A stretch of 35,334 nucleotides of DNA from a virus (lineage: Duplodnaviria; Heunggongvirae; Uroviricota; Caudoviricetes): the IMG/VR virus record IMGVR_UViG_2713896776_000008. The stretch is one strand, 5' to 3'. Made by a program: the position numbers and the translations under genes. Below are positions 1 through 11,272 of this stretch, in pieces (position 1 is the stretch's first letter; each line of letters starts with the position of its first letter). A model generated the notes under the pieces. The model was not told the DNA's origin. It ran no database searches and worked only from the letters and a program-made list of their open reading frames with translations.

Positions 1-330
1 TCAGTAACCAAACAACGCCCATTTTAGTAGTGCATCTGCATCATTCTTCAAACTTCCAAGGTCTTTTCCTGGTGAAATTGTTGCCGCTACACCAAGCGCA
101 TTAAGTCGAAGCTGTGCCTGATGGAATCGACTCTCTTGCTGTAGGCCCAGAATTTCATTTTTATTCGCGACAGCATAACGCTGAATGGCTGACTTCGATA
201 CGCTGTAACCTTTATCGGCTAACCAGAGCGAGAGCCATTCATAACCGGTGAAGTTTGTGCGCGATAATTCGCTATGAAGCTCGGCACGAACATCCTCTGG
301 CAGTTTATCAATATTGCTTGGTCTGGCCAT
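1..330 (-). CDS. DUF3486-like protein, short paralogue of the Mu gp27-like putative small terminase subunit (N-terminal DNA-binding part)
   Basis: ATG at 330 with AGGAGG 5-6 nt upstream; MARPSNIDKLPEDVRAELHSEL...GYEWLSLWLADKGYSVSKSAIQRY parallels the N-terminus of the 13282-13830 product (MARRSTIEKLPEDVRRWLERAL...GYNELESLLREQGYVISKSAIHRY). Stop at window position 1-3. Confidence 0.6.
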   Translation of the reverse strand: MARPSNIDKLPEDVRAELHSELSRTNFTGYEWLSLWLADKGYSVSKSAIQRYAVANKNEILGLQQESRFHQAQLRLNALGVAATISPGKDLGSLKNDADALLKWALFGY

Positions 331-349
331 CTGTCCTCCTATAAATAGC

Positions 350-739
350 TTAGCTATTTTCCACCTTCTCTGAATCAGAGTCACCATCAAACAGTTTGCC
401 CTGCATCCGATCCAATTCTTCTTTTCTGACCCGCTTCACCACGCTGTAAACCCACTGTAGTGAAACACCGAATTTGCGGGCCAGTTCGTGATGGTTGCGT
501 CCGTCAAACTCCAGGAATATTTCCCGGTCGCGCTGACTGACCTTCCAGACCATGCCCATCGGAAAATAGACGTTTTGCCCACCCCAGACCTGCATCATGC
601 GGTTCGCGACGGCCTGACCAATCTGGTCGGCAACTGCGGGTTCGATATCAATAATCTCGCGGACGGTCTCAGAGGTATGCTGTGCCAGTTCTACCAACAG
701 TTCCGGCCCTTTACTACGAAACTGATTCAGGTCGCTCAT
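350..739 (-). CDS. mor: Mor/C-family transcriptional activator (middle/late activator), 129 aa
   Basis: ATG at 739 preceded by GGGAGTGA; GGQxVYxP...GRNhhELarkfGVS...VYsvvKRvR pattern typical of the Mor family; position downstream of gemA-like gene as in Mu. Confidence 0.8.
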   Translation of the reverse strand: MSDLNQFRSKGPELLVELAQHTSETVREIIDIEPAVADQIGQAVANRMMQVWGGQNVYFPMGMVWKVSQRDREIFLEFDGRNHHELARKFGVSLQWVYSVVKRVRKEELDRMQGKLFDGDSDSEKVENS

Positions 740-1164
740 TGCTTCACTCCCGCAGCTCTGCGCTGCCACTTCTTCAGTTTCTCAATCACGCTACTTGCCT
801 GCTCATTGCTGAGCCAGCGTAACGCGCTGATGCCTGTTTCCCGTTTAACCCACAGCGCCAGCGCCTGCTCTGAACTGTCTCGGACGATGCCTGCGGCAGC
901 CATTTCAAGCCATAGCGCACGGATTTTCTTTGACTGCGGATGACTATCCAGCGGTAAGCCGGACTTGGCTTTCCCGGCAGGCTTAATGCGAAAGCCTTTA
1001 TTTTTCATGGATTCCAGCACGCGGTTTAGCTGTGGGGTATCCATCCCTTTGGTTGAGGCTTTGCCGGTCAGCCCCTGTAGCATCTGGCGGTAGGTGTCCT
1101 CATCCATCTGGAGGTCATTGCGGGCAATATGGATGAGTTGAATAAGACGCTGCTTAGTCATCAT
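736..1164 (-). CDS. gemA: GemA-like regulatory protein (Mu gp16 family, DUF1018)
   Basis: MMTKQRLIQLIHIARNDLQMDEDTYRQMLQGLTGKAS... signature; AAGGAG upstream of ATG at 1164; stop overlaps mor start. Confidence 0.7.
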   Translation of the reverse strand: MMTKQRLIQLIHIARNDLQMDEDTYRQMLQGLTGKASTKGMDTPQLNRVLESMKNKGFRIKPAGKAKSGLPLDSHPQSKKIRALWLEMAAAGIVRDSSEQALALWVKRETGISALRWLSNEQASSVIEKLKKWQRRAAGVKQ

Positions 1165-1369
1165 CGTCGCTCCTTTTACCTGCGCCACCGATATAATCGA
1201 CATATAAAGGAAGCGCAACAGGCCAGCACATGAACATAACGGCCCAACTGATCCAGTGTCCGGCACCGCTGTAACGTGAGTAAAAACCTGAGCGGCGGTG
1301 CAGTTCAGCAGTACACCACCCCACGAGACCATACCAGAACAGGGCACATACAATTGATTCAGCCATCAT
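1154..1369 (-). CDS. small hydrophobic (probably 2-TM) protein, unknown function
   Basis: In-frame ATG pair at 1369/1366 in ORF 1154-1483; hydrophobic segments ESIVCALFWYGLVGW and WISWAVMFMCWPVALPLY; overlaps neighbours by a few nt (operon packing). Confidence 0.4.
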   Translation of the reverse strand: MMAESIVCALFWYGLVGWCTAELHRRSGFYSRYSGAGHWISWAVMFMCWPVALPLYVDYIGGAGKRSDDDD

Positions 1370-1586
1370 AATGAATCCCACCCCAGTTAATATGAATGTT
1401 ACGGGCTGTAGTAACCGGATCGTTATTCCACCATGCACCTGACATGTAATTTTTAACCTGCTCTCGTCCAGCAATAATGCCAATTTGAATGCCGGGCCTT
1501 ACGTTCTTAAAAAAGGCGCGAGCAAAAAGATATTTAGCAGCTGTACGACAAGGGTTCGGTGCTTTCTTCTTACGCGATAACATCAT
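1359..1586 (-). CDS. hypothetical small basic protein (75 aa)
   Basis: ORF with tandem ATG at 1586; overlaps stop of upstream DUF2786-like gene by 4 nt (translational coupling); no recognisable domain. Confidence 0.4.
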   Translation of the reverse strand: MMLSRKKKAPNPCRTAAKYLFARAFFKNVRPGIQIGIIAGREQVKNYMSGAWWNNDPVTTARNIHINWGGIHYDG

Positions 1587-2272
1587 CTTTCAGCCCTCAG
1601 TTTATGCTGCTCCTGCCCGCCAACGGGCTGATGCAGGCGGACGTTTTCCCCTTCTCTGTAACCGATGTGGCGGGACATGTCTGCGTCACGTGACTTCCCG
1701 GCCCCACGGCCCGTAGTTGTGCCTGAGTCAGGGTATTTTTGTTCAAGCCAGAGGCTTGCCAGCTCCCGTTCTTCGCGGGACATAGCAAATAAATGAACCT
1801 CGCTGCGCACGGCCAGAACCCAGCCTTCGGCAAACTTGTCACCACGACTGGTCTTGGTCGTGTTTTTGATTCTTTTATTCTGCTGTCGAATATAGTTTTT
1901 ACGGGCCACGATTAATTGTCTGGCCAGTACCTCCCATGTATATGAGGCCAGTTCAACCCGGTCTTTATTACCGTAAAAACCAACGCTGGGTTTAAAGCCG
2001 GAGTGAATAATAGACTTAACGCCAAATGCCACCTGGATAATATCCAGCAGACCCAGCATGTATCGCGGTGGGTTAACGCTACCTGCTGCCCAGTAGTGAC
2101 TGACGCTTTCATCAATATCGCTGAGTGCGAGGTCAGCCTGGGTGATGTTATAGGCCTGCATCAGCTTCTGGGCGCGTTGTAGGGCCAGTGCAGCTTCATG
2201 GGGGTTGTCAGATTTAGCCAGCGCCAGCAGCTTTTTTAACTTCTCCAGCAGCTTTTCATTATTCTGCGGCAT
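1583..2272 (-). CDS. DUF2786-like domain protein (common early-region protein of Mu-like prophages)
   Basis: N-terminal LLEKLKKLLALAKSDNPHEAALALQRAQKLM motif characteristic of DUF2786; ATG at 2272. Confidence 0.6.
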   Translation of the reverse strand: MPQNNEKLLEKLKKLLALAKSDNPHEAALALQRAQKLMQAYNITQADLALSDIDESVSHYWAAGSVNPPRYMLGLLDIIQVAFGVKSIIHSGFKPSVGFYGNKDRVELASYTWEVLARQLIVARKNYIRQQNKRIKNTTKTSRGDKFAEGWVLAVRSEVHLFAMSREERELASLWLEQKYPDSGTTTGRGAGKSRDADMSRHIGYREGENVRLHQPVGGQEQHKLRAER

Positions 2273-2741
2273 AAGTCACCCCCAGGCGTTCGGCAAGGCG
2301 TTCCAGCTTTTTCTGCTTATGAAAATCAATCATCAGGCCCATCCCGTTGAGGCGGAACTGTTCAATCATGATTTCAACGTCAGCCAGTTCGCCAGCCAGA
2401 TCAACTTCACTGCCCAGTCCGTTCATGTTGCGGGCGGCAGCAGCGGCCAGCTCGGCGGCTTCTTCCATCAGCTTCAGCGCCTGTGCTTCAGGGCCAAAGG
2501 TTTTCAGGGCCAGATTGTATATAGTGGAGCGGTTATATAATTTCATGCCTTTCATTTTTTTTGCCTCGCAGGGGATGAACTCCATGGCCGGAACTTCGGT
2601 GTAGTAATGCTGGCTGCAGTGAGGGCATACCAGCGTGATGAGGACGGCTGGCACACGGTACTTACCGGAGGTAATGACGCTGGCGTCGCTGAACTTCAGG
2701 GTGGTGATACCTTTCTGGCAGTTGGTACATTTGATGGACAT
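2259..2741 (-). CDS. Zn-ribbon (CxxC...CxxC) fused to MazG-like all-alpha NTP pyrophosphohydrolase domain
   Basis: ATG at 2741 with AAGGAA upstream; N-term CTNCQ...CPHCSQ; C-term EEAAELAAAA...AGELADVEIMIEQ acidic motifs resembling MazG/HisE-type metal-binding helices. Confidence 0.55.
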   Translation of the reverse strand: MSIKCTNCQKGITTLKFSDASVITSGKYRVPAVLITLVCPHCSQHYYTEVPAMEFIPCEAKKMKGMKLYNRSTIYNLALKTFGPEAQALKLMEEAAELAAAAARNMNGLGSEVDLAGELADVEIMIEQFRLNGMGLMIDFHKQKKLERLAERLGVTYAAE

Positions 2742-2819
2742 GTTTTATTCCTTAATGCTGTTTTCGGCGTGCAGAAACCCACAGCGCTGACGCCGAAATA
2801 AAAAGAAATTGAATTAAAA

Positions 2820-3431
2820 TTAAATGGCAGCGATATCTAACGGGATATTAATTAGCTTCCCGTGTTTATCTTTCTCCCGGAAATTAATATAGGTTTTGGA
2901 CATTGCCACTTGCAGTGATTCCGATATAGCCTCCATTGCCCGGTTCCAGCGCTCGTCCTGAATCTTGACGCGGCGCAGGGAAAGAATACGTCCGGTATTA
3001 AGCTGGCCCTCTTTGTCCACCTGAAAAGCATCGCTGATGATGGCCCGCAGGTTGGCGTTCGCGCCTTCCGACCACTCGGTGACGCACTCGTCTATCAGGT
3101 CTTTGGCAATCTGCAGCTCTGGCCCGAAGGTCAGGGTTTCCTGCACGCGGATGGTGATCTGCTGAGCACCGTCGAAGCTGCTGAAGGTCACGTTGCCTTT
3201 GGCACCGCCGCGTGTTCTGCCGTACTTCTCGGCCACAAGGTCAAGCCAGGCATAGCACTCGTCAAAGGCACGACGCTTGAAGTCGCTGAGTTCATCGCGT
3301 TTAACCTTCGCGGCGGCAACCTGTTCTTTAACGAAAGAGTCCATCGCAAGGTCATAGTCAGACACCTGGTCAACCGGCACCAGACGCCCCTTGCGGTCTT
3401 TCATGTAGTTTTCTTTATTTACTTCGCTCAT
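2820..3431 (-). CDS. DUF3164-like protein (Mu-like early-region protein), 203 aa
   Basis: ATG at 3431 with AAGGTGA upstream; size, position after B and family resemblance; function unknown. Confidence 0.55.
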   Translation of the reverse strand: MSEVNKENYMKDRKGRLVPVDQVSDYDLAMDSFVKEQVAAAKVKRDELSDFKRRAFDECYAWLDLVAEKYGRTRGGAKGNVTFSSFDGAQQITIRVQETLTFGPELQIAKDLIDECVTEWSEGANANLRAIISDAFQVDKEGQLNTGRILSLRRVKIQDERWNRAMEAISESLQVAMSKTYINFREKDKHGKLINIPLDIAAI

Positions 3432-3448
3432 CTCTGTTCACCTTATGG

Positions 3449-3718
3449 TTAATGTAACGACTCTGACCAGGTAATACGGCAGCCATGCAACTCAAAGACG
3501 CCCTGACGGAAGCGCCCTGAGCCGTCATGGCCAACATGGGTATAACTCGCTTTGCCCTGCTCCAGCAGGCGGGCACAGTGCCCGTTGCGGGCGATACGGA
3601 TAACCGGCTTACTGCCAGCAATCATGACGCTCTGCACGGTAGTGTTCATGGCGTTGAGCGCCATAATGGCGGACTGCACCTTGTTCATCTGCTGGTTGAT
3701 ATCGGCGATGGATTTCAT
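3449..3718 (-). CDS. hypothetical 89-aa protein immediately downstream of B (Kil-position gene)
   Basis: ATG at 3718 with AGGAG upstream; begins 3 nt after B stop; no recognised domain. Confidence 0.5.
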   Translation of the reverse strand: MKSIADINQQMNKVQSAIMALNAMNTTVQSVMIAGSKPVIRIARNGHCARLLEQGKASYTHVGHDGSGRFRQGVFELHGCRITWSESLH

Positions 3719-3720
3719 GA

Positions 3721-4887
3721 TTAAACTCCTTTGACGACGTCGGCGTTGACCTGCGGAACCCCGATTTCAGCAGCCAGATTCATGGCGGCTATCACCAGGT
3801 TACTGACGGCCAGCGGATACAGCAGGCTGACCATGCTTTTACGGTTGCTGCCCAGATTGCTCAGACGGGCGCGGATGGCTTCCACTGCGCTGGCGTCCAT
3901 GATGTCAGACAGCTGCTTACCGGCGCGTTGCAGTTTGAACGTCAGAAACTCTTCGAGGCTGTTGTCCAGCGGCAGCAGTTCAACCACCTCGCAGCGCTGG
4001 ACGACCTCACGGACTTCCATGTTGCGTTCGGACAGTTTGTCCGCCAGCTCAGGCTGGCCAATCAGCACGATGGACAGCAGTTTTTTGAAGCCGGATTCCA
4101 GCTCAAAGAAGCGTTTGAGGTGCTTCAGCGTCGGAATGGGCAGACTGTGGGCCTCCTCAATCACCAGAACGTGGCTGAAACCCGCCTGACTGCTGTCCTT
4201 CAGGACGCGGTGCAACTGGCGGAAACGGGCGTCCTGGCTGCGTTTGATACTCTCCAGCGGCGCGATGGTGCTGATGATGGCCTCGGCGATAGCTGCCGCC
4301 TTCAGGGTTTTGCCCTTCACGTCGTTGTCTTCCATGGCGATGATGTATGGCTCGATAACAATCACCGGCGCGTTCTCGCGGTTGACGCGTTCAATCAGGT
4401 CGCGGCGCAGCGTGGATTTACCCGCACCGGACTCGCCGATAACCGCCAGAAAGCCACCGTGGCGGGCGGTCTGGAACAGCGCCTCACGCACGTAGCGGAT
4501 ATCCGGCGTGGTGAACACATCGTCCGCGCCCTGCATGGCTTCATCGGCGAACGGGTCACGGAAAAGACCAAACGCTTTTTTGGTTGCTGGAAATAACACC
4601 TGCTTTTTGAGTAACATGTTCTCTTCCTCACTGAGGTTGGTTTTATCGGTAGTACCCGCTGTACGGGGTGTGACAGCGCCCTGTGCAGCATCAAAACTTT
4701 TCGCTGTATCAATCCCCTTACTTTCCAGATACAACGCCAGACGCTGGCGTACCTCTTCGGGGCTGGTGCGGGGCCACTCGTTATGGTTCACAATCTGGGC
4801 CAGCGTGGCCTCGGAAACGGCGACGGCTCTTGCCACCGCCGCCTGCGGGATGCGGGCCTCTTTCAGTTGTTGCTTCAGTACCAGCAT
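3721..4887 (-). CDS. DNA transposition protein B-like AAA+ ATPase (target DNA activator)
   Basis: Walker A AVIGESGAGKST, N-terminal HTH-like segment, Walker B-like hVLVIEEAH; GGAGG RBS; directly downstream of transposase as in Mu A-B. Confidence 0.85.
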   Translation of the reverse strand: MLVLKQQLKEARIPQAAVARAVAVSEATLAQIVNHNEWPRTSPEEVRQRLALYLESKGIDTAKSFDAAQGAVTPRTAGTTDKTNLSEEENMLLKKQVLFPATKKAFGLFRDPFADEAMQGADDVFTTPDIRYVREALFQTARHGGFLAVIGESGAGKSTLRRDLIERVNRENAPVIVIEPYIIAMEDNDVKGKTLKAAAIAEAIISTIAPLESIKRSQDARFRQLHRVLKDSSQAGFSHVLVIEEAHSLPIPTLKHLKRFFELESGFKKLLSIVLIGQPELADKLSERNMEVREVVQRCEVVELLPLDNSLEEFLTFKLQRAGKQLSDIMDASAVEAIRARLSNLGSNRKSMVSLLYPLAVSNLVIAAMNLAAEIGVPQVNADVVKGV

Positions 4888-4897
4888 GCCTTCCTCC

Positions 4898-6667
4898 TCA
4901 GTTACCGTTAACGATGCTGATAACGCTGTTGCGGGCCGGAGTGGTCAGGGTGACCATGACCTCATCCAGAGCGGCTTCCGGTACGCCGTCCGGGTACTGT
5001 GCCGTTAACTGGCGGTAATGTTCCGGCGTCCAGATATGGCCGTTAGCGCCAAACTTCTCGCGCAGGGCTTTCGCCGCCTCCACATGGGTCAGCGGACGCT
5101 GCTCAATACGCGGCCCGCGCACGTCTGAAGCCTGACCGCGCTTCGGCATATAGGCCGGAAGCGTGGTGTCGTCGATATGTTTGTACGGGTCAAGTCGCCC
5201 GCCGAACGGCAGCGCCTTCGCCTTGCGTGCAGCAGCTGCATCGGTGGCGTTATCGGTGCCCGTAACCAGCTCTTCGATTTCTTTTGCCGCCGTCTGCGCC
5301 GGGGTCTCCGGCAGGGCTTTGTAGTTTTCGCCAAATACCGCCGCGCTTTCGGCAAAGCCGAACTCGTTCTTTCTGACCTCCTCGACCAGGAAGAACGTCT
5401 CGTGACCGTCCTCACCGGTCAGCACCACCTGCGCCACATCGCTGCGCCACGGGTTACGGGTAATCATCAGTTTTTCGCCGACCAGTACGCCCGGTACCGT
5501 CGAAACGTCAAACTCATTGCCCCGGAACGAGACGCGCAGTTTTGGTGTGACCTTACGGAGTTCCGGTGCGGCCACCGCCAGTTCGCGGCAAACCTCAACG
5601 GATGGCGCTTTTTTCAGCTGGTCAGCAGTAATCTTCAGCCAGATATCCGTGCGGGTTTTACCGTGGCGGCTGTGGACCGCCGTGGCGTTAAAGTGGCTGC
5701 GCCATTTCACCGCCAGTGCGTTCAGTTCGTCCAGGCTATGAACCGGCTGGAATTTGAGACCCGGCTCCAGTTTACGTTCGATAATGTCACGGGCCTTTTC
5801 CACCTGCCCGGTGGCGCGGGCGTTATGCGGCTTGTGCGCTATCAGATTGATGCCCAGCGAGCGGCACATGTTTTTCGTCATGCCAGCGGTGTTCGCCGAA
5901 CCGGGATCAAGGTAGAGTATTTTCGGCACGCCGTGCAGCACGTCCGCGCCGCCGCGCTCCTGCATGGCGTTGATAAGCACAGAACAGAGGTTCTCACCAG
6001 ATTCCGCACCCATCACGTACTCAACGTAAATCCAGCCGCTGGTATGGTCGGTAATCTCGTAACTCCACACGCGGTCACTGGCGATGCGGGCGATGTTGGC
6101 AGGCTTGTTCTTGTAGAACTTCGAGCTGTCCATCACCTGCAACCCTTTATGGCCGTTGCTCAGGTAGTAAAGCGTACAAAGTGAGGCATCAATCTCCCAG
6201 ACGTGATTGGGATGCAGGCTGGCCATCTCGGACGACGGGGCCGGTGCGTCAAGCTGTTCCGGGTGCAGACCATAGTTCCGCAGGGCGCGGCTGATGGTGT
6301 CCTCGGACAGCGGGAAAAACTCGCCTGTGGCCTCGTCCGTTCTGCCAGCAGTGATAAAGCCGTTTGACCGCAGGGTCTCCACCGCATCCGCGATGGAATA
6401 CAGGCGTTTACCGTTCTTACGGGTGGCCTCGCGCAGCGTGGCGGAGATCAGCGCGGCCTCGTCGCGGCTCAGGGCGCTGCGCCCGGCATCGGCGCGTTTT
6501 TTGCGTTTGTCAGTCACTGATACCTCCTTCAGCTTGCGCAGCAGGGTGGCGCGGGACATGCCCAGTTCAGCGCAGGCGGCGTCGTATATCGCACCGCGCT
6601 TACCATGCCCCGCGTCACGTGCCGCGCGGGCAACATAAACCAGTCGTTCAGTCAGGGCGGCACTCAT
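4898..6667 (-). CDS. Mu-type DDE transposase (A protein), 589 aa
   Basis: N-terminal HTH (GMSRATLLRKLKEV), central DDE/rve-like core (HVWEIDAS ... YLDPGSANT ...), GGAGG RBS, followed by B. Confidence 0.85.
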   Translation of the reverse strand: MSAALTERLVYVARAARDAGHGKRGAIYDAACAELGMSRATLLRKLKEVSVTDKRKKRADAGRSALSRDEAALISATLREATRKNGKRLYSIADAVETLRSNGFITAGRTDEATGEFFPLSEDTISRALRNYGLHPEQLDAPAPSSEMASLHPNHVWEIDASLCTLYYLSNGHKGLQVMDSSKFYKNKPANIARIASDRVWSYEITDHTSGWIYVEYVMGAESGENLCSVLINAMQERGGADVLHGVPKILYLDPGSANTAGMTKNMCRSLGINLIAHKPHNARATGQVEKARDIIERKLEPGLKFQPVHSLDELNALAVKWRSHFNATAVHSRHGKTRTDIWLKITADQLKKAPSVEVCRELAVAAPELRKVTPKLRVSFRGNEFDVSTVPGVLVGEKLMITRNPWRSDVAQVVLTGEDGHETFFLVEEVRKNEFGFAESAAVFGENYKALPETPAQTAAKEIEELVTGTDNATDAAAARKAKALPFGGRLDPYKHIDDTTLPAYMPKRGQASDVRGPRIEQRPLTHVEAAKALREKFGANGHIWTPEHYRQLTAQYPDGVPEAALDEVMVTLTTPARNSVISIVNGN

Positions 6668-6670
6668 CGG

Positions 6671-7579
6671 TTATGCCTCCTGCCCGTTAATCTGTGGCGT
6701 CGGTTCAGTCAGCCATGAAGGGGCGGCGTTACCTGTCGGCTCATCCGGCAGGTCAAATGTGGAGCGCAGGCTACGCGCGGTGCTTTCCAGCTGGCAGACC
6801 AGACCGGCCATAAAGTCTCTGGGGGTATCAATCATATTTTCAGCACAGTATGCGCACAGGGTCTCAAAGGCGCTGGACAGTCGAACGGCGATGGCAGATT
6901 CCGCCTCAACCGCTAATGCCGTCACTTCCGCGCGCAGTTTCTTCACCTCTTCGTCAGGCTTAGGGGGCTGGATACGGGATTTCTTCTCCAGTTTGGTGGA
7001 GAGAGAGTCGATTTTTTCGTTTTTGTCGGCGAGCACGCGCTGTTGTGCTGCGTTGGTTTCGCGGGCTTCGCGTAATGCAGCCCGGAGTTCGCGGCTGGTC
7101 ATGCGATCGATATCATCTAGGGTTAAGCCTGCAATGGTGCCGCCTTCGGCTAACTCTGATAGCTCTTCGTCGTCCTCTGCTATTAATTCGAACAGTTTAG
7201 TTTTGCCCAAATGTGCCAGCGCTGGCACATTTGATTTCAGTGTGGGAGATAAATATTTAGTAGCAGCCTGCATCATTCTTACGGAAGTTCGGTATGGTAA
7301 GCCCAACTCATTTTCGAGGACGTTAATAAACTCCCCATGCGGCTCATTCTCTTTCAATATCACCAAACGCTTACCGGCTTCGAGCATAGACTCGGCACTT
7401 TGCGCCATATAAAAGCGAGCCTCATGAATAATCCGATCACGTTCATACGGCAGGCCATCACCGAACTGCTGCATGATTTCGAGGCGATGTTCAGTCATGG
7501 CATTAAGACTAATGTTGAGGCCATCACTTACCGGCGCATCTTCCATCAGTTCAACTGGTTGTGATTTTGTGCGTCCCAT
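6671..7579 (-). CDS. conserved phage protein, DUF3102-like N-terminal region with coiled-coil C-terminus (302 aa)
   Basis: ATG at 7579 with AAGGAG upstream; long heptad-like charged stretch (RELRAALREARETNAAQQRVLADKNEKIDSLSTKLEKK); family assignment from memory, tentative. Confidence 0.5.
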   Translation of the reverse strand: MGRTKSQPVELMEDAPVSDGLNISLNAMTEHRLEIMQQFGDGLPYERDRIIHEARFYMAQSAESMLEAGKRLVILKENEPHGEFINVLENELGLPYRTSVRMMQAATKYLSPTLKSNVPALAHLGKTKLFELIAEDDEELSELAEGGTIAGLTLDDIDRMTSRELRAALREARETNAAQQRVLADKNEKIDSLSTKLEKKSRIQPPKPDEEVKKLRAEVTALAVEAESAIAVRLSSAFETLCAYCAENMIDTPRDFMAGLVCQLESTARSLRSTFDLPDEPTGNAAPSWLTEPTPQINGQEA

Positions 7580-7588
7580 TTCAACTCC

Positions 7589-7894
7589 TTAGCGACTGCC
7601 AGCCATAACACGCTGGTTGATTTCATTAATACGATCCTGCGCCCGCGCCATCTCGGTGCTGTGCGCCATGGCGATTTGTAAGAGCTGGACTCCAGGGGCG
7701 AAGCGCCCGTTATCCAGTTTCAGGGCCAGTCCTTCTTCGATAAGGGTATTGAGCGCACGATTGATATTCGCCGGTGACTCGCCCAGAGCCGATGCCAGTT
7801 CACCGTTAGAAACACCGTTCAGGGCGTGGCCACGCAGTGCTTTAAGAACGCGCAGAATGCGGGAGCCAGAACTGGATACATTTGCCTTACTCAT
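7589..7894 (-). CDS. winged-helix (IclR/MarR-like HTH) DNA-binding protein
   Basis: ATG at 7894 (alternative upstream start at 7957); RILRVLKALRGHALNGVSNGELASALGESPANINRALNTLIEEGL resembles wHTH recognition module. Confidence 0.55.
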   Translation of the reverse strand: MSKANVSSSGSRILRVLKALRGHALNGVSNGELASALGESPANINRALNTLIEEGLALKLDNGRFAPGVQLLQIAMAHSTEMARAQDRINEINQRVMAGSR

Positions 7895-7946
7895 GTCACA
7901 TTCCCCTTTTTGCGATATGTGATAATCTGTTACACGGACTAAAACG

Positions 7947-8135
7947 TTACGCCGCATTCGAATCTGGTTTCAGACCCAGCTTCACGGCAATTTCGTGTGA
8001 TTTGCCGTAACGAGCTTTGGTGAAGCCGTTAAGAACACGGTAGACCTCATTGCGGCTGTAGCCGTTTTCTTCAGCCCAGCGGGTGAAAGTGACCCCGCGC
8101 TGGCGGAAGAGAGATTTGACTTGTTCTGCAGTCAT
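7947..8135 (-). CDS. Ner/Cro-like small DNA-binding protein, first gene of early operon
   Basis: 62 aa, AAGGAG upstream of ATG at 8135, divergent from repressor gene; HTH-like GYSRNEVYRVLNG; functional call by position and size. Confidence 0.55.
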   Translation of the reverse strand: MTAEQVKSLFRQRGVTFTRWAEENGYSRNEVYRVLNGFTKARYGKSHEIAVKLGLKPDSNAA

Positions 8136-8235
8136 CGTTGTCTCCTTTGTTCATGCAATGATGTTTGCCTTATGTGTGATAGATTATGGTGCAGATTTCC
8201 TCACCAGTCAACTTTAAGAGTGCAGAAATACTCAC
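8136..8235. promoter_or_regulatory. divergent early/repressor control region with direct GTGCAGA repeats (8189-8196, 8220-8227)
   Basis: 100-bp intergenic region between divergent ner-like and repressor genes; two GTGCAGA(T/A) copies 31 bp apart; AT-rich. Confidence 0.4.
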
Positions 8236-8574
8236 ATGATCGGTTTACGTATTAAAGAAGAAAGAGAACGTCTATCCCTTACGCAGCAAGGGTTAGCTGA
8301 CGCTATAGGTGTGGCGAAGAGAACTTTCATAGATTGGGAGAAAGATCGCACCTCCCCAACTGCAGTGCAGTTATCTGCACTATCAGAAATCGGCGTGGAT
8401 GTTTTGTATGTAGTTACTGGGATGAGGAGCCAACCTGTTGTTGCACCTTACGAGTCACAAGAAAAGAAAGAGTTAATGGACGCGTTCGACGACATGAGTC
8501 CCGAGCAGCGGAGGGCTATTCTTGAGGTCGGCAAAGTCCTCACTCAGCCAAAGCCCAGCAAGTTTGCTAGTTGA
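8236..8574 (+). CDS. XRE-family HTH repressor (c-repressor analogue)
   Basis: N-terminal HTH LSLTQQGLADAIGVAKRTFIDWEKDRTSP; divergent from early operon. Confidence 0.75.
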   Translation: MIGLRIKEERERLSLTQQGLADAIGVAKRTFIDWEKDRTSPTAVQLSALSEIGVDVLYVVTGMRSQPVVAPYESQEKKELMDAFDDMSPEQRRAILEVGKVLTQPKPSKFAS

Positions 8575-8662
8575 GCACACTGGTAAAAAGGGGCTGAAAG
8601 TAAAGATAATGTGGTCGATTTTGCTACCTTTCGCAGGCTAAGTTACAAAAAGAATAAATAGG

Positions 8663-8678
8663 GTTAGAACGTTCTAAC
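8663..8678. promoter_or_regulatory. perfect 16-bp palindrome GTTAGAACGTTCTAAC, candidate operator upstream of lipoprotein gene
   Basis: Read directly; centred about 28 bp upstream of the ATG at 8698, just upstream of AAGGA RBS. Confidence 0.45.
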
Positions 8679-8697
8679 AGACAACATAAGGATATAT

Positions 8698-9636
8698 ATG
8701 CGTAAGATGTTTTTGGTCTTAGCTCTGTCATTGCTGGTCGGTTGTGATAGTGGATCAGATGGTGTATCGGATTCTCCTTCTACTCCGTCCGTAGAATTCA
8801 ATGTAAAAACGGACGATTTGACTGTAAACAAGCTGTTGCCTGCTATCAAAAATCTACTGCCAGGGTTAAATCGGTACGCAGATCAGTTCGAAAATATTCA
8901 CGTTGAGCAAAATCATTGGCTCACTATCGTGTTTCATGTTCCCGAAAATGCAAACATACCCGCAGATTATCTCTCTCAGGGGAATAATTGCTTCATCGAG
9001 ATCAATAAAGAAGGTACAGCTATAAAAGTGCCTAAAAGAGCCTGTAAATCCGTTGCCCTAGATAGAGTTGTGCAGGATTTAGATAGCGACTATTGGTTCT
9101 ATTTCAATGCCGACGAATTAACCTATGTGCCGTATGATTTTGCAAAGTTAAACGACAAACAACGTGTAGATATTGGTGTCGCATATCTAAAAAAAATGTG
9201 GGATATCGTGCAGATGGTTAAGCAAAAAACAGACTGGCAACCAGATGATTTTCCTAACTACGCCAGATTGTTCAGGCAACTGGAGAGTGAGGGTAAGCAG
9301 TTTGTAATGGAGGGGGATATGTTCCCAGCTTATGGCTCTTGCAGGATGGCGGGGGCTAACGCTCAGCAATGGTGGTCTACACAAATTAGCTCACTTAAAG
9401 ATTTATCTTCAAATGACCCTCAACGAGCGGGTTCCGCTTTAAAACAAATTAAACGTCAATATGACTCATATCATGAAAGCGCTGTGAGTTGTGCAAAAGA
9501 AATCAGGCAAGCTCCACCAGTAGAGAAAAAAATGGAGGTGTTACCCCCTACGTCAGACAATAAACCTCCAAGAGCGGGCTGTCTGATGATATTTACACCT
9601 GATGACAAGACTAGCTGGAGCTGCCCGATAAACTGA
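8698..9636 (+). CDS. lipoprotein (312 aa), lipobox LLVGC with Asp at +2, AT-rich cargo gene
   Basis: MRKMFLVLALSLLVGC|DSG signal peptide and lipobox; AAGGA RBS; local GC visibly lower than flanking phage genes; several Cys pairs in mature part. Confidence 0.7.
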   Translation: MRKMFLVLALSLLVGCDSGSDGVSDSPSTPSVEFNVKTDDLTVNKLLPAIKNLLPGLNRYADQFENIHVEQNHWLTIVFHVPENANIPADYLSQGNNCFIEINKEGTAIKVPKRACKSVALDRVVQDLDSDYWFYFNADELTYVPYDFAKLNDKQRVDIGVAYLKKMWDIVQMVKQKTDWQPDDFPNYARLFRQLESEGKQFVMEGDMFPAYGSCRMAGANAQQWWSTQISSLKDLSSNDPQRAGSALKQIKRQYDSYHESAVSCAKEIRQAPPVEKKMEVLPPTSDNKPPRAGCLMIFTPDDKTSWSCPIN

Positions 9637-9638
9637 CA

Positions 9639-9896
9639 TTAGCAAGGCTTTCTGCTTTGGGGATTGGCGCTGATGGTCAGTCTTATCTCTCCAATGAGTA
9701 TTCCTTTCAGCTTATTTTCAGGGAGCATTCGTGGCGTTTTCTCCACCTGCTCAAGCGCGGCCTGCATCTCTCTTATTGCCTCTGCCAGATTGTCGGCATT
9801 GACGCTAAGTGTGTAGATTTTTGCTGCAGTTTCATGCTCATCGCAGGTTATTCCCATTAAGTATGAGTGTTTGGGTTTATTAGTTGCTGAACTCAT
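9639..9896 (-). CDS. hypothetical 85-aa protein co-transcribed downstream of dam-like gene
   Basis: ATG at 9896 with AAGGAG upstream, 12 nt after methyltransferase stop; stop lies 2 bp from lipoprotein stop (convergent). Confidence 0.5.
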   Translation of the reverse strand: MSSATNKPKHSYLMGITCDEHETAAKIYTLSVNADNLAEAIREMQAALEQVEKTPRMLPENKLKGILIGEIRLTISANPQSRKPC

Positions 9897-9908
9897 GCGT
9901 TTCTCCTT

Positions 9909-10673
9909 TCAGAAATTGCATATCACAAGTTCCTGGCGCGGTGATGACTTACCCGACAGGCTGTAGTTGATGCAAACGGTCTGGATGTTGAGGCCTTTGA
10001 AAGCCTGCCTCATCTCTGGGATATCGTTCACCGATATAATCATTTTCCCTTTGATACTCCGCGCCAGTTCCGACATGTGGATATAGTTCCCTATTGGAAA
10101 ATCCACCCCATAGCCCTCTGTTCCCCAGTACGGTGGATCACAGTAGAACAGCGTATGCGGGCGATCATAACGCTCTATGCATTGGTGCCAGTCCAGATGC
10201 TCTATCAGCGTTCTGGACAGGCGCAGGTGTGCCATCGACAGTTCTTCTTCGATGCGCAGGAGGTTAAAGCGCGGCGCACTTGTGGTGGAGGTTCCGAACG
10301 AGTGATCGGCCACCTTGCCGCCAAACGCCTGTTTCTGCAGGTAGTAGAACCGGGCCGCCCGCTGAATGTCGGTGAGCGTTTCTTCCGGCGTATCCTGCAA
10401 CCATTTATAAATCTGACGGCTGACCAGCGCCCATTTGAACTGGCGAACAAATTCTTCCAGATGATGCTTGACCACCCGATAGAGGTTCACCAGCTCCCCG
10501 TTGATATCGTTAATGACTTCGGTCTTGCTGGGCGTCTTGAGAAAATAGAGCGCAGCTGCCCCGCAGAACGGCTCCACATAGCAGGTATGGGCCGGAAACA
10601 GCGGCAGAATATGTTTAGCCAGACGACGTTTGCCGCCAATCCATGGGACGATGGGTAAAGATTGTTCTTTCAT
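9909..10673 (-). CDS. Dam-like N6-adenine DNA methyltransferase (D12 class), orphan
   Basis: N-terminal PWIGGKRR...FCGAAALYF (AdoMet motif) and DPPY catalytic motif; ATG at 10673 (ORF track begins at TTG 10697). Confidence 0.8.
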   Translation of the reverse strand: MKEQSLPIVPWIGGKRRLAKHILPLFPAHTCYVEPFCGAAALYFLKTPSKTEVINDINGELVNLYRVVKHHLEEFVRQFKWALVSRQIYKWLQDTPEETLTDIQRAARFYYLQKQAFGGKVADHSFGTSTTSAPRFNLLRIEEELSMAHLRLSRTLIEHLDWHQCIERYDRPHTLFYCDPPYWGTEGYGVDFPIGNYIHMSELARSIKGKMIISVNDIPEMRQAFKGLNIQTVCINYSLSGKSSPRQELVICNF

Positions 10674-10714
10674 TATCCGTAAGCCTTTTGCAATCAATGA
10701 AAATATGGCAGGCT

Positions 10715-10737
10715 AGTCAGGTCTCGCGAGACTGACT
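10715..10737. promoter_or_regulatory. near-perfect palindrome AGTCAGGTCTCG/CGAGACTGACT in dam-holin divergent intergenic region
   Basis: Read directly; lies between divergent methyltransferase and lysis operon starts. Confidence 0.3.
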
Positions 10738-10776
10738 GAACCCTGGTCGGCTCACAGTGCATACCTGTGGGTTGAT

Positions 10777-10808
10777 GACCAGCCTGGTGTTACAGCACCG
10801 GGCTGGTC
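10777..10808. promoter_or_regulatory. inverted repeat GACCAGCCTGGTG-N6-CACCGGGCTGGTC
   Basis: 12/13 arm complementarity, 6-nt spacer, in the same divergent intergenic region. Confidence 0.3.
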
Positions 10809-10861
10809 GTTCTTTCAAAGCCATCATGCGGTTCACGTCCGCATCCTCACTATTAACGCTG

Positions 10862-10899
10862 TTTAAAATCCCTTTCCCCGACCATTTGTGATGCTGTCT
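10862..10899 (+). promoter_or_regulatory. candidate late promoter element (weaker third copy of TTTAAWATC-N20-ATRCTGYCY motif) upstream of lysis operon
   Basis: TTTAAAATCCCTTTCCCCG ... ATGCTGTCT with the same 20-nt spacing as copies at 24459 and 30287. Confidence 0.35.
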
Positions 10900-10921
10900 C
10901 CACTACACAAGGAGACGCACC

Positions 10922-11272
10922 ATGAAAAACCTGAAAAAACTTATTCCCCCTGTTAAAAAGCCACGTCTCAGCGGCTGGCTGCTGACCGCAGTGCTGTTGC
11001 TCGGTACCATCGGTCTTGTATCGCCCCAGCAGCTTCCGGTGGTTGTCTACAAGCTGTCACTCATCACGCTAGCGGCAGTATTGGGCTACTGGCTTGACCG
11101 TTCGCTTTTCCCCAAAGCCAGGCCAGGTCAGTACCTGAAGCATGACGACAGGCTGATGGCCGACGGGCGTTACCCGGTACAGACAGGCCTTCACCTGGTC
11201 TTTTCCGCTGCGCTAATCCGCCGTGCGCTGATTGTTGCCGCAGTCTGTCTGGCCGTAGCGACGGGGCTTTAA
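10922..11272 (+). CDS. putative holin / small lysis membrane protein (about 3 TM)
   Basis: AAGGAG RBS; hydrophobic segments WLLTAVLLLGTIGLV, LSLITLAAVLGYWL, ALIVAAVCLAVATGL; first gene of lysis cassette. Confidence 0.5.
   Translation: MKNLKKLIPPVKKPRLSGWLLTAVLLLGTIGLVSPQQLPVVVYKLSLITLAAVLGYWLDRSLFPKARPGQYLKHDDRLMADGRYPVQTGLHLVFSAALIRRALIVAAVCLAVATGL

Follow-up and report, generated by a model that had tools for sequence, protein, structure and literature searches.

Genes between B and gemA

This work concerns the block of small genes between the transposition gene B and gemA in IMG/VR virus record IMGVR_UViG_2713896776_000008, a 35,334-nucleotide (nt) stretch of DNA that we refer to as the window. 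The interval is the semi-essential (SE) early region of a B3/BcepMu-type transposable prophage of Enterobacteriaceae. Coordinates are those of the whole window, and g1 to g6 are the open reading frames (ORFs) of the block in transcription order from the B side. The block and its two anchors are laid out as follows.

4887..3721, minus strand: B, transposition ATPase (ExeA/AAA_22 type), the upstream anchor; AAA_22 and phrog_296 'DNA transposition protein'
3718..3449, minus strand: g1, 89 amino acids (aa), Kil-family by profile comparison, directly after B; named 'HI_1482 family' by the Prokaryotic Genome Annotation Pipeline (PGAP)
3431..2820, minus strand: g2, 203 aa, DUF3164
2741..2259, minus strand: g3, 160 aa, fusion ORF of a Zn-ribbon and a MazG-like nucleoside triphosphate (NTP) pyrophosphohydrolase
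2272..1583, minus strand: g4, 229 aa, DUF2786 helical hairpin and DUF7168
1586..1359, minus strand: g5, 75 aa, basic protein, variable cassette
1369..1154, minus strand: g6, 71 aa, two hydrophobic segments and a DDDD tail
1164..736, minus strand: gemA, the downstream anchor; PF06252 at E 3e-41, 35% identity to Mu GemA

An earlier note made from the letters alone had described six tightly coupled genes here. Six minus-strand ORFs do lie at exactly the coordinates it gave and the coupling is tight, with spacers of 2 nt between B and g1 and 17 nt between g1 and g2, and overlaps of 14 nt (g3/g4), 4 nt (g4/g5), 11 nt (g5/g6), 11 nt (g6/gemA) and 4 nt (gemA/mor), the 78 nt between g2 and g3 being the sole real gap. 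The count of six is lineage-specific, as near-identical prophages have seven genes with g3 split in two. The domain calls were also right (DUF3164, DUF2786 together with DUF7168, Zn-ribbon and MazG-like, a basic 75-aa protein and a 71-aa protein with two predicted transmembrane (TM) segments). Every block ORF matched a PHROG family (E 3e-14 to 4e-82). Comparison with the alleles of related loci gave ratios of non-synonymous to synonymous substitution rates of 0.05-0.13 across all block genes (0.08 for g1), the same range as for B (0.07), gemA (0.10) and mor (0.05). All six block genes are under purifying selection. NCBIfam returned no matches for any block protein and a PDB sequence search gave nothing for g2, g3 and g4.

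To describe variation among relatives, loci were anchored on B with gemA required downstream, giving 76 loci including the window. Between the conserved anchors these loci showed 31 different gene orders. Homologues of g1 were present in 70 of the 76 (plus 4 divergent), the Zn-ribbon in 64 (plus 4 divergent), MazG in 67, g4 in 61 (plus 3 divergent), g5 in 38 and g6 in 51 (plus 15 divergent). The block proteins diverge far more than the anchors; in a Gam-carrying clade whose B is 93-94% identical to that of the window, identity fell to 68% for g1, 55% for the Zn-ribbon and 65% for g4. Alternative cassettes in the relatives included a clear Mu Gam homologue (U2), a PF04447 dATP/dGTP pyrophosphohydrolase (4.7e-44), a protein with a Lar restriction-alleviation domain (PF14354, 2e-8) and a Zn-ribbon protein matching the PHROG 'host nuclease inhibitor' family (1.8e-18), along with several further small uncharacterised proteins. 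The Lar, PF04447 and 'host nuclease inhibitor' cassettes were found at L032 8232-9164, L020 8616-9107 and L091 8704-9171. This content agrees with the proposal that the interval is an accessory region for host takeover and anti-defence, and comparison across related prophages, a check that had been suggested, found that the block does not consist of invariant core replication genes. Two positions do weigh against a wholly accessory block, as both are near core: a Kil-like gene was found in 74 of the 76 loci and a slot holding either DUF3164 or Gam was filled in 75.

Two relatives stood out by block length. Locus L082 (IMGVR_UViG_2574179710_000003) has 318 nt from B to a truncated gemA, a natural near-complete loss of the block. 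The longest block, at 4290 nt, is that of L068, in which an insertion of about 1.2 kb (~9890-11100) splits the g5 homologue and may be an insertion sequence element.

Together these data point to an SE-region cassette mosaic with a Kil-family gene at its head and a real fusion allele at g3, a reading to which we give a probability of about 85%. The block is not one system but a row of small cassettes that can be exchanged independently and are each under purifying selection. The locus is in itself ordinary, of a known kind and already carried as hypothetical and DUF annotations in hundreds of enterobacterial genomes, and its value lies in the assignments it offers, which can be tested cheaply. 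What is new beyond the earlier note is the Kil homology, the fusion allele and the rule for the Gam/DUF3164 slot. The cassette map also indicates the places at which counter-defence cargo (Lar, nucleotide pyrophosphohydrolases, nuclease inhibitors) is exchanged by these phages, which makes the map useful for mining anti-defence genes.

The gene after B and Mu Kil

g1 matched phrog_2041 (3e-33) and, over its full length, phrog_6381 'Kil' with an E value of 0.0048. For comparison at the family level, small ORFs were gathered from 226 related loci and two non-overlapping alignments were built for hhalign, one of 68 unique g1-family sequences and one of 27 unique sequences recruited with Mu Kil (from Mu, D108-like, Klebsiella, Vibrio and other phages). 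Alignment of the g1 family to the Mu-Kil family resulted in a probability of 96.4% and an E value of 1e-9 over 75 columns, which is nearly all of Mu Kil. An iterative profile seeded with Kil detected the g1 of the window in round 1 (E 3e-6) and all 160 g1-type ORFs by round 3, with intermediate sequences such as L236 forming the bridge between the two. Judged by these profiles, g1 is a remote homologue of Mu Kil and a member of the Kil family; the earlier remark that the 89-aa gene sits where Mu has kil was correct, and the relationship goes beyond position. Weighing against this assignment, iteration seeded with g1 did not reach Mu Kil (E 0.32), making the link asymmetric and dependent on the profile method. 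BLASTP of g1 against the Mu SE proteins found no similarity.

The two proteins share further features. Like Mu Kil (gp5, 74 aa), g1 is encoded immediately 3' of B, and the two align collinearly along about 75 residues, among them a P-[VI]-[IL]-x-[IV] segment. Both have a C-terminal G-C-x-[IV]-x-W motif and finish L-x-G-C-x-I-x-W. g1 differs in its 15 additional residues and an extra segment in its centre (C48...GKA), and it has no BLASTP-level similarity to Kil. The first gene after B is Kil in Mu and a match to the Kil/g1 profile in B3 (ORF10), and the PGAP name 'HI_1482 family' ties g1 by name to the gene after muB in H. influenzae FluMu. Vibrio phage martha carries a Kil-like gene close after B and directly upstream of a DUF3164 gene, as in the window. 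At L036 1998-3440, B and the Kil-like gene were read as a single ORF (a B+g1 fusion), a second case of fused early neighbours.

Expression of Mu kil is reported, in a passage of PMC3961180 citing Waggoner et al. 1989, to produce spherical E. coli cells. Like Mu Kil, g1 would most likely perturb growth or division of the host cell envelope early in the lytic cycle. By analogy, a Kil-like phenotype for g1 appears somewhat more likely than not, with spherical cells predicted. The 'HI_1482 family' protein found after B in B3-like and FluMu-like phages and in these prophages can be named Kil-family, which carries an expected phenotype with it.

The DUF3164 slot and the g3 fusion allele

g2 matched PF11363 (DUF3164) at 3e-80 (268.9 bits, gathering score 23.7), aligning to positions 1-193 of the 194 in the profile. 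Co-occurrence of DUF3164 and Gam was scored within flanks of 8 kb on either side using home-made hidden Markov models (HMMs). Among the 76 B-anchored loci, DUF3164 was found in 38 and Gam in 37, none had both, and the single locus with neither was one with almost no block. Gam was not detected around any of 70 further DUF3164-anchored IMG/VR loci, and DUF3164 was not detected around any of 78 Gam-anchored loci, resulting in co-occurrence at 0 of about 226 loci overall. The alternation recurs across B-identity groups, as the groups at 81-86%, 91-94% and 95-100% each contain one or the other. A clean single-gene replacement was seen in a pair of Pseudomonas Casadabanvirus phages, in which D3112 has gam (L243 4566-5351) and Ab30 has DUF3164 (L242 4631-5230) at the same spot; the two genomes are 98.0% identical along the 4.6 kb upstream of it and 97.4% along the 3.2 kb downstream. 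In the complete genome of B3, DUF3164 is present and no Gam is annotated, and roseophages with DUF3164 are reported to be without Gam (PMC5488378). In phage records DUF3164 occurred in 210 (B3-like, BcepMu, KS10, Ralstonia, Vibrio and others) and Gam in 139 (Mu, D3112-like, RcapMu and others).

Gam shields linear DNA from RecBCD (PMC8705779), while DUF3164 is given no function in PMC5488378 or PMC7761591. The natural gene swaps suggest, tentatively and at somewhat less than even odds, that DUF3164 is a non-homologous functional stand-in for Gam. g2 would then meet the same need, protecting the ends of linear phage DNA from host exonuclease (RecBCD) by means of an unrelated fold. If true, this would mean that B3/BcepMu-type and many other transposable phages use a second family of proteins, structurally unrelated to the first, that protect DNA ends or counter RecBCD, and it would explain why exactly one of DUF3164 and Gam occupies this slot of the early operon. 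DUF3164 is present in more than 200 sequenced phages and travels with transposase genes across phyla, and the swaps with gam provide a concrete hypothesis for its function. PMC8705779 writes of 'the gam gene of the SEE region in Mu and B3', although in B3 a Gam was neither detected nor annotated and DUF3164 is found instead; informally, the slot in B3 may already count as equivalent to gam.

Compared with the Ku-like host nuclease inhibitor Gam of Mu (PF07352), g2 is alike in filling exactly the Gam slot in a mutually exclusive manner and unlike it in sequence and predicted fold. No sequence or fold homology to PF07352 was found, and the AlphaFold2 model of g2 (predicted local distance difference test score of 82.6) had no Gam/Ku-like neighbour. 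This lack of similarity is also what would be expected if DUF3164 and Gam were unrelated cargo at a shared recombination hotspot, with the either/or pattern arising by linkage from a few ancestral haplotypes and no function in common. DUF3164 would then have a different role, such as an accessory of transposition or replication or a virion-associated protein, consistent with the detection of DUF3164 peptides in roseophage virions (PMC5488378) and with its presence beside A and B genes even in prophages of Bacteroidetes (PMC7761591). Among enterobacterial phages, clades with DUF3164 and clades with Gam differ across the entire block, meaning that the counts are not independent, and the exclusivity rests on roughly three to five independent swap lineages seen within flanks of 8 kb by home-made HMMs; both points weigh against the stand-in proposal. 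Linkage fits less well with the recurrence of the alternation in separate B-identity lineages, with the clean swap between 97-98% identical flanks in an unrelated Pseudomonas genus and with the near absence of loci that have neither gene (1 of 76), which argues that one of the two is needed. We regard shared cargo without shared function as a serious contender that is still rather less probable than its negation.

The earlier note had described g3 as one Zn-ribbon-MazG-like gene. Both domains were matched, and the single gene proved to be a fusion of two by one extra A. Its parts are listed below.

2741..2556, minus strand: Zn-ribbon part of g3 (ancestral 62-aa gene); phrog_3401 at 1e-30 over residues 1-62; CxxC at 5-8 and 39-42
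2555..2562, minus strand: A8 homopolymer, A7 or G-A6 in relatives; fuses the two frames
2555..2259, minus strand: MazG-like part of g3 (ancestral 98-aa gene); phrog_2245 'NTP pyrophosphohydrolase' at 9e-32 over g3 residues 48-158

In prophages 99-100% identical to the window here, PGAP annotates a 62-aa hypothetical protein and a 98-aa 'nucleoside triphosphate pyrophosphohydrolase family protein' joined by an ATGA overlap. Alignment showed A8 in the window against A7 in these near-identical prophages and G-A6 in other relatives. The extra A places the Zn-ribbon frame in phase with the MazG ATG and the free 62-aa product is thereby lost. The MazG part keeps its own ATG and an upstream GAGG, and it would probably still be made alone from this retained start codon. 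At least 12 contigs of NCBI, ENA and Logan assemblies encode the exact 160-aa fusion protein. Between the window and four of the fusion loci, 6-29 of 5741 positions differ (99.5-99.9% identity), and in these four loci the phage end (...TCACGTCTAATCA) is joined to four different host sequences, indicating that the fusion allele has been carried through independent integrations. The A8 fusion allele is real and lineage-specific. It is also rare, as the unfused 98-aa protein occurs on at least 1000 contigs and the fusion was seen in 0 of 80 IMG/VR relatives.

The MazG metal-binding motif EExxE(12-28)ExxD is intact in g3 (EEAAE, 20 residues, ELAD) and was found in 135 of 150 family representatives. 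The closest representative of the MazG part is the standalone 98-aa protein, and fusion of this Zn-ribbon to MazG was not seen among the 150 best representatives. Distant MazG-like relatives (P0065, P0085 and P0189) have other Cys-rich N-terminal extensions. Two findings weigh against the reading of g3. The MazG part scored 18.0 bits against Pfam PRA-PH, below the gathering score of 21.3; phrog_2245 and the PGAP name in relatives support its assignment. In addition, the Zn-ribbon and MazG genes are split by cassette U1 (phrog_3691) in 41 of the 76 loci, or are present singly, and fusion need not mean functional partnership. A Rosetta-stone inference that the two proteins must interact was considered and is weakened, each occurring alone and the two often being separated. 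The ancestral state of g3 would be a small Zn-ribbon protein and a MazG-like enzyme hydrolysing a nucleotide or alarmone, welded by one A in an A7 run.

Atd1, a MazG-like enzyme encoded by phage, acts against TIR-STING toxicity and depletes (p)ppGpp (bioRxiv 10.1101/2022.06.09.495361). Like such phage NTP pyrophosphohydrolases, the MazG part of g3 is small and all-alpha, has the EExxE...ExxD motif and is phage-encoded among genes of counter-defence type. It differs in being fused to a Zn-ribbon, and the likeness is one of class and motif.

The A-run could instead be a site of programmed -1 frameshifting or transcriptional slippage, such that A7 phages make some fusion protein and A8 hard-wires it. 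The zero frame of the A7 relatives reads GC A_AAA_AAA TGA, a canonical X_XXY_YYZ heptamer right before the stop, and a -1 shift would enter the MazG frame at its ATG. That the hard-wired fusion is viable and has spread, and that P0065, P0085 and P0189 bear N-terminal extensions, would also fit. The heptamer is not conserved, with close relatives reading GCG AAA AAA TGA at 5 of the 17 junctions scored; the gene inserted between Zn-ribbon and MazG in 41 of 76 relatives removes the adjacency, the ATGA overlap is ordinary translational coupling, and no stimulatory structure was seen, although none was sought. The rarity of the fused form relative to the unfused one argues in the same direction. 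With neither the heptamer nor gene adjacency conserved across relatives, we largely rejected programmed frameshifting and consider it improbable.

A sequencing or assembly error in the homopolymer, leaving the window with two true genes, was suggested by the one-base difference itself and by the five best E. coli complete-genome matches (99.7-100% identical), which all lack the extra base (2700 of 2701 bases). To give the identical 160-aa product on at least 12 contigs from different samples, and four loci with 6-29 differences and distinct phage-host junctions, such an error would have to have arisen repeatedly and independently within just one sublineage, and it was rejected on the independent contigs and host junctions as very unlikely.

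The early operon and its known counterparts

g4 matched PF10979 (DUF2786) at 2e-13 (50.4 bits against a cutoff of 23.9) and PF23771 (DUF7168) at 1.3e-24 (86.9 bits against 25.5). Its structural model has a KH-like alpha/beta core, on the strength of which binding of single-stranded nucleic acid could be envisaged, although we find it doubtful. The distant g4 relatives P0478 and P0479 (364 aa) combine DUF2786/DUF7168 with a SprT-like (PF10263) metalloprotease domain, a fusion that is a possible functional lead for the DUF. Homologues of the MazG part lie directly after Gam in L185-L189, Mu-related IMG/VR loci nearer Mu proper, and g4 homologues occur in L190 and L191, indicating that the same cassettes circulate between Mu-like and B3-like phages. 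g5 matched phrog_3681 (1.5e-46) and has an isoelectric point of 10.5. g6 matched phrog_6436 (3e-14), shows two hydrophobic segments by hydropathy and an acidic DDDD tail, and carries the UniRef name 'prophage membrane protein'. The basic g5 and the predicted two-TM membrane protein g6 are variable cassettes.

The neighbouring features that frame the operon are these.

8211..8183, minus strand: promoter-like site TTGACT-17-CATAAT, a consensus match only, upstream of a ner-like gene
6667..4898, minus strand: DDE transposase A, upstream of B
739..350, minus strand: mor, the final early-operon gene; PF08765 at 1e-42

The gene order is A-B-block-gemA-mor, all on one strand. The site at 8211..8183 is the only sigma-70-like site on the minus strand, and no terminator-like or internal promoter-like site was found on that strand within the block, indicating that the block is part of one leftward early operon. 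This site is likely the early promoter for the whole leftward operon, and the block would be transcribed from it with A and B during lytic development. The earlier placement of the block in the slot of the Mu SE region, between B and gemA/mor within one early operon, was borne out. This location, lacking an internal promoter-like site, means that the block should be repressed in the lysogen, which together with the absence of any PADLOC defence-model match among the six block proteins and the counter-defence type of the identifiable cassettes in relatives (Gam, Lar, the host nuclease inhibitor family) makes it most unlikely that these are prophage defence or superinfection-exclusion genes benefiting the lysogen instead of serving lytic takeover and anti-defence, even though prophage accessory regions often carry defence genes and g6 is a small membrane protein of a type common among exclusion factors.

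The late genes start at about 10.9 kb and read rightward, the layout of B3/BcepMu and not of Mu. Identity to Pseudomonas phage B3 is 57% for A and 55% for B (against B3 ORF11). Prophages nearly identical to that of the window are found in E. coli, Klebsiella, Salmonella, Citrobacter and Enterobacter, and IMG/VR contig 2806310904_000007 is 84-87% identical to the window. A 40,540-bp circle, L003 (NZ_CP132021.1, E. coli JCH8249 'plasmid unnamed'), contains the same prophage with flanking host genes (DUF1116, amidohydrolase) and could be an excised or circular transposition product or an assembly artefact.

An Rfam scan of bases 1-9000 found no RNA family. The 78-nt gap between g2 and g3 (2742-2819, minus strand) contains a hairpin with a 9-bp stem (TTTCGGCGT...ACGCCGAAA) that was not significant against shuffled sequences (z = -1.8), and the gap is a boundary at which relatives insert other cassettes. 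On the plus strand, a 312-aa ORF (8698-9636) lies directly 3' of a helix-turn-helix repressor gene (8236-8574, plus strand) within an island of low GC content (0.44, where the phage has about 0.58). It had no Pfam or PADLOC match and is a candidate lysogeny-expressed moron or defence gene.

The SE region of these phages is described as long and poorly conserved, with small genes of unknown function (PMC8705779), and hosts infected with MuBam regain viability when the SE region of Mu is deleted (PMC3325207). The block shares with the Mu SE/SEE region (kil to gp15, between B and gemA) its early-operon position before gemA-mor and its form, a run of small, tightly packed ORFs starting with a Kil-family gene, and Gam occurs in the same block of sister phages of the window. 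Kil aside, neither BLASTP nor iterated profiles turned up a Mu counterpart for any block protein: BLASTP of the block-side proteins against the Mu SE proteins matched only gemA and mor, and profiles iterated from the Zn-ribbon, g5, g6 and DUF3164 found no homologues in Mu proper. The window lineage also differs from Mu in having 6-7 genes against 14 (PMC3325207), in lacking Gam in the window itself and in having the early operon inverted relative to the late genes, as in B3/BcepMu.

Pseudomonas phage B3 (ORF10-ORF3) differs in having no detectable Zn-ribbon, MazG, g5 or g6 homologues and in carrying additional small ORFs (ORF7-9, ORF3-4). The genome layout of B3 is otherwise the same as that of the window; its ORF10, after B, is matched by the merged Kil/g1 profile, ORF6 is DUF3164 (44% identity) and ORF5 is a g4 homologue (35%). 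Burkholderia phage BcepMu likewise has the same genome layout, and its gp05 is DUF3164.

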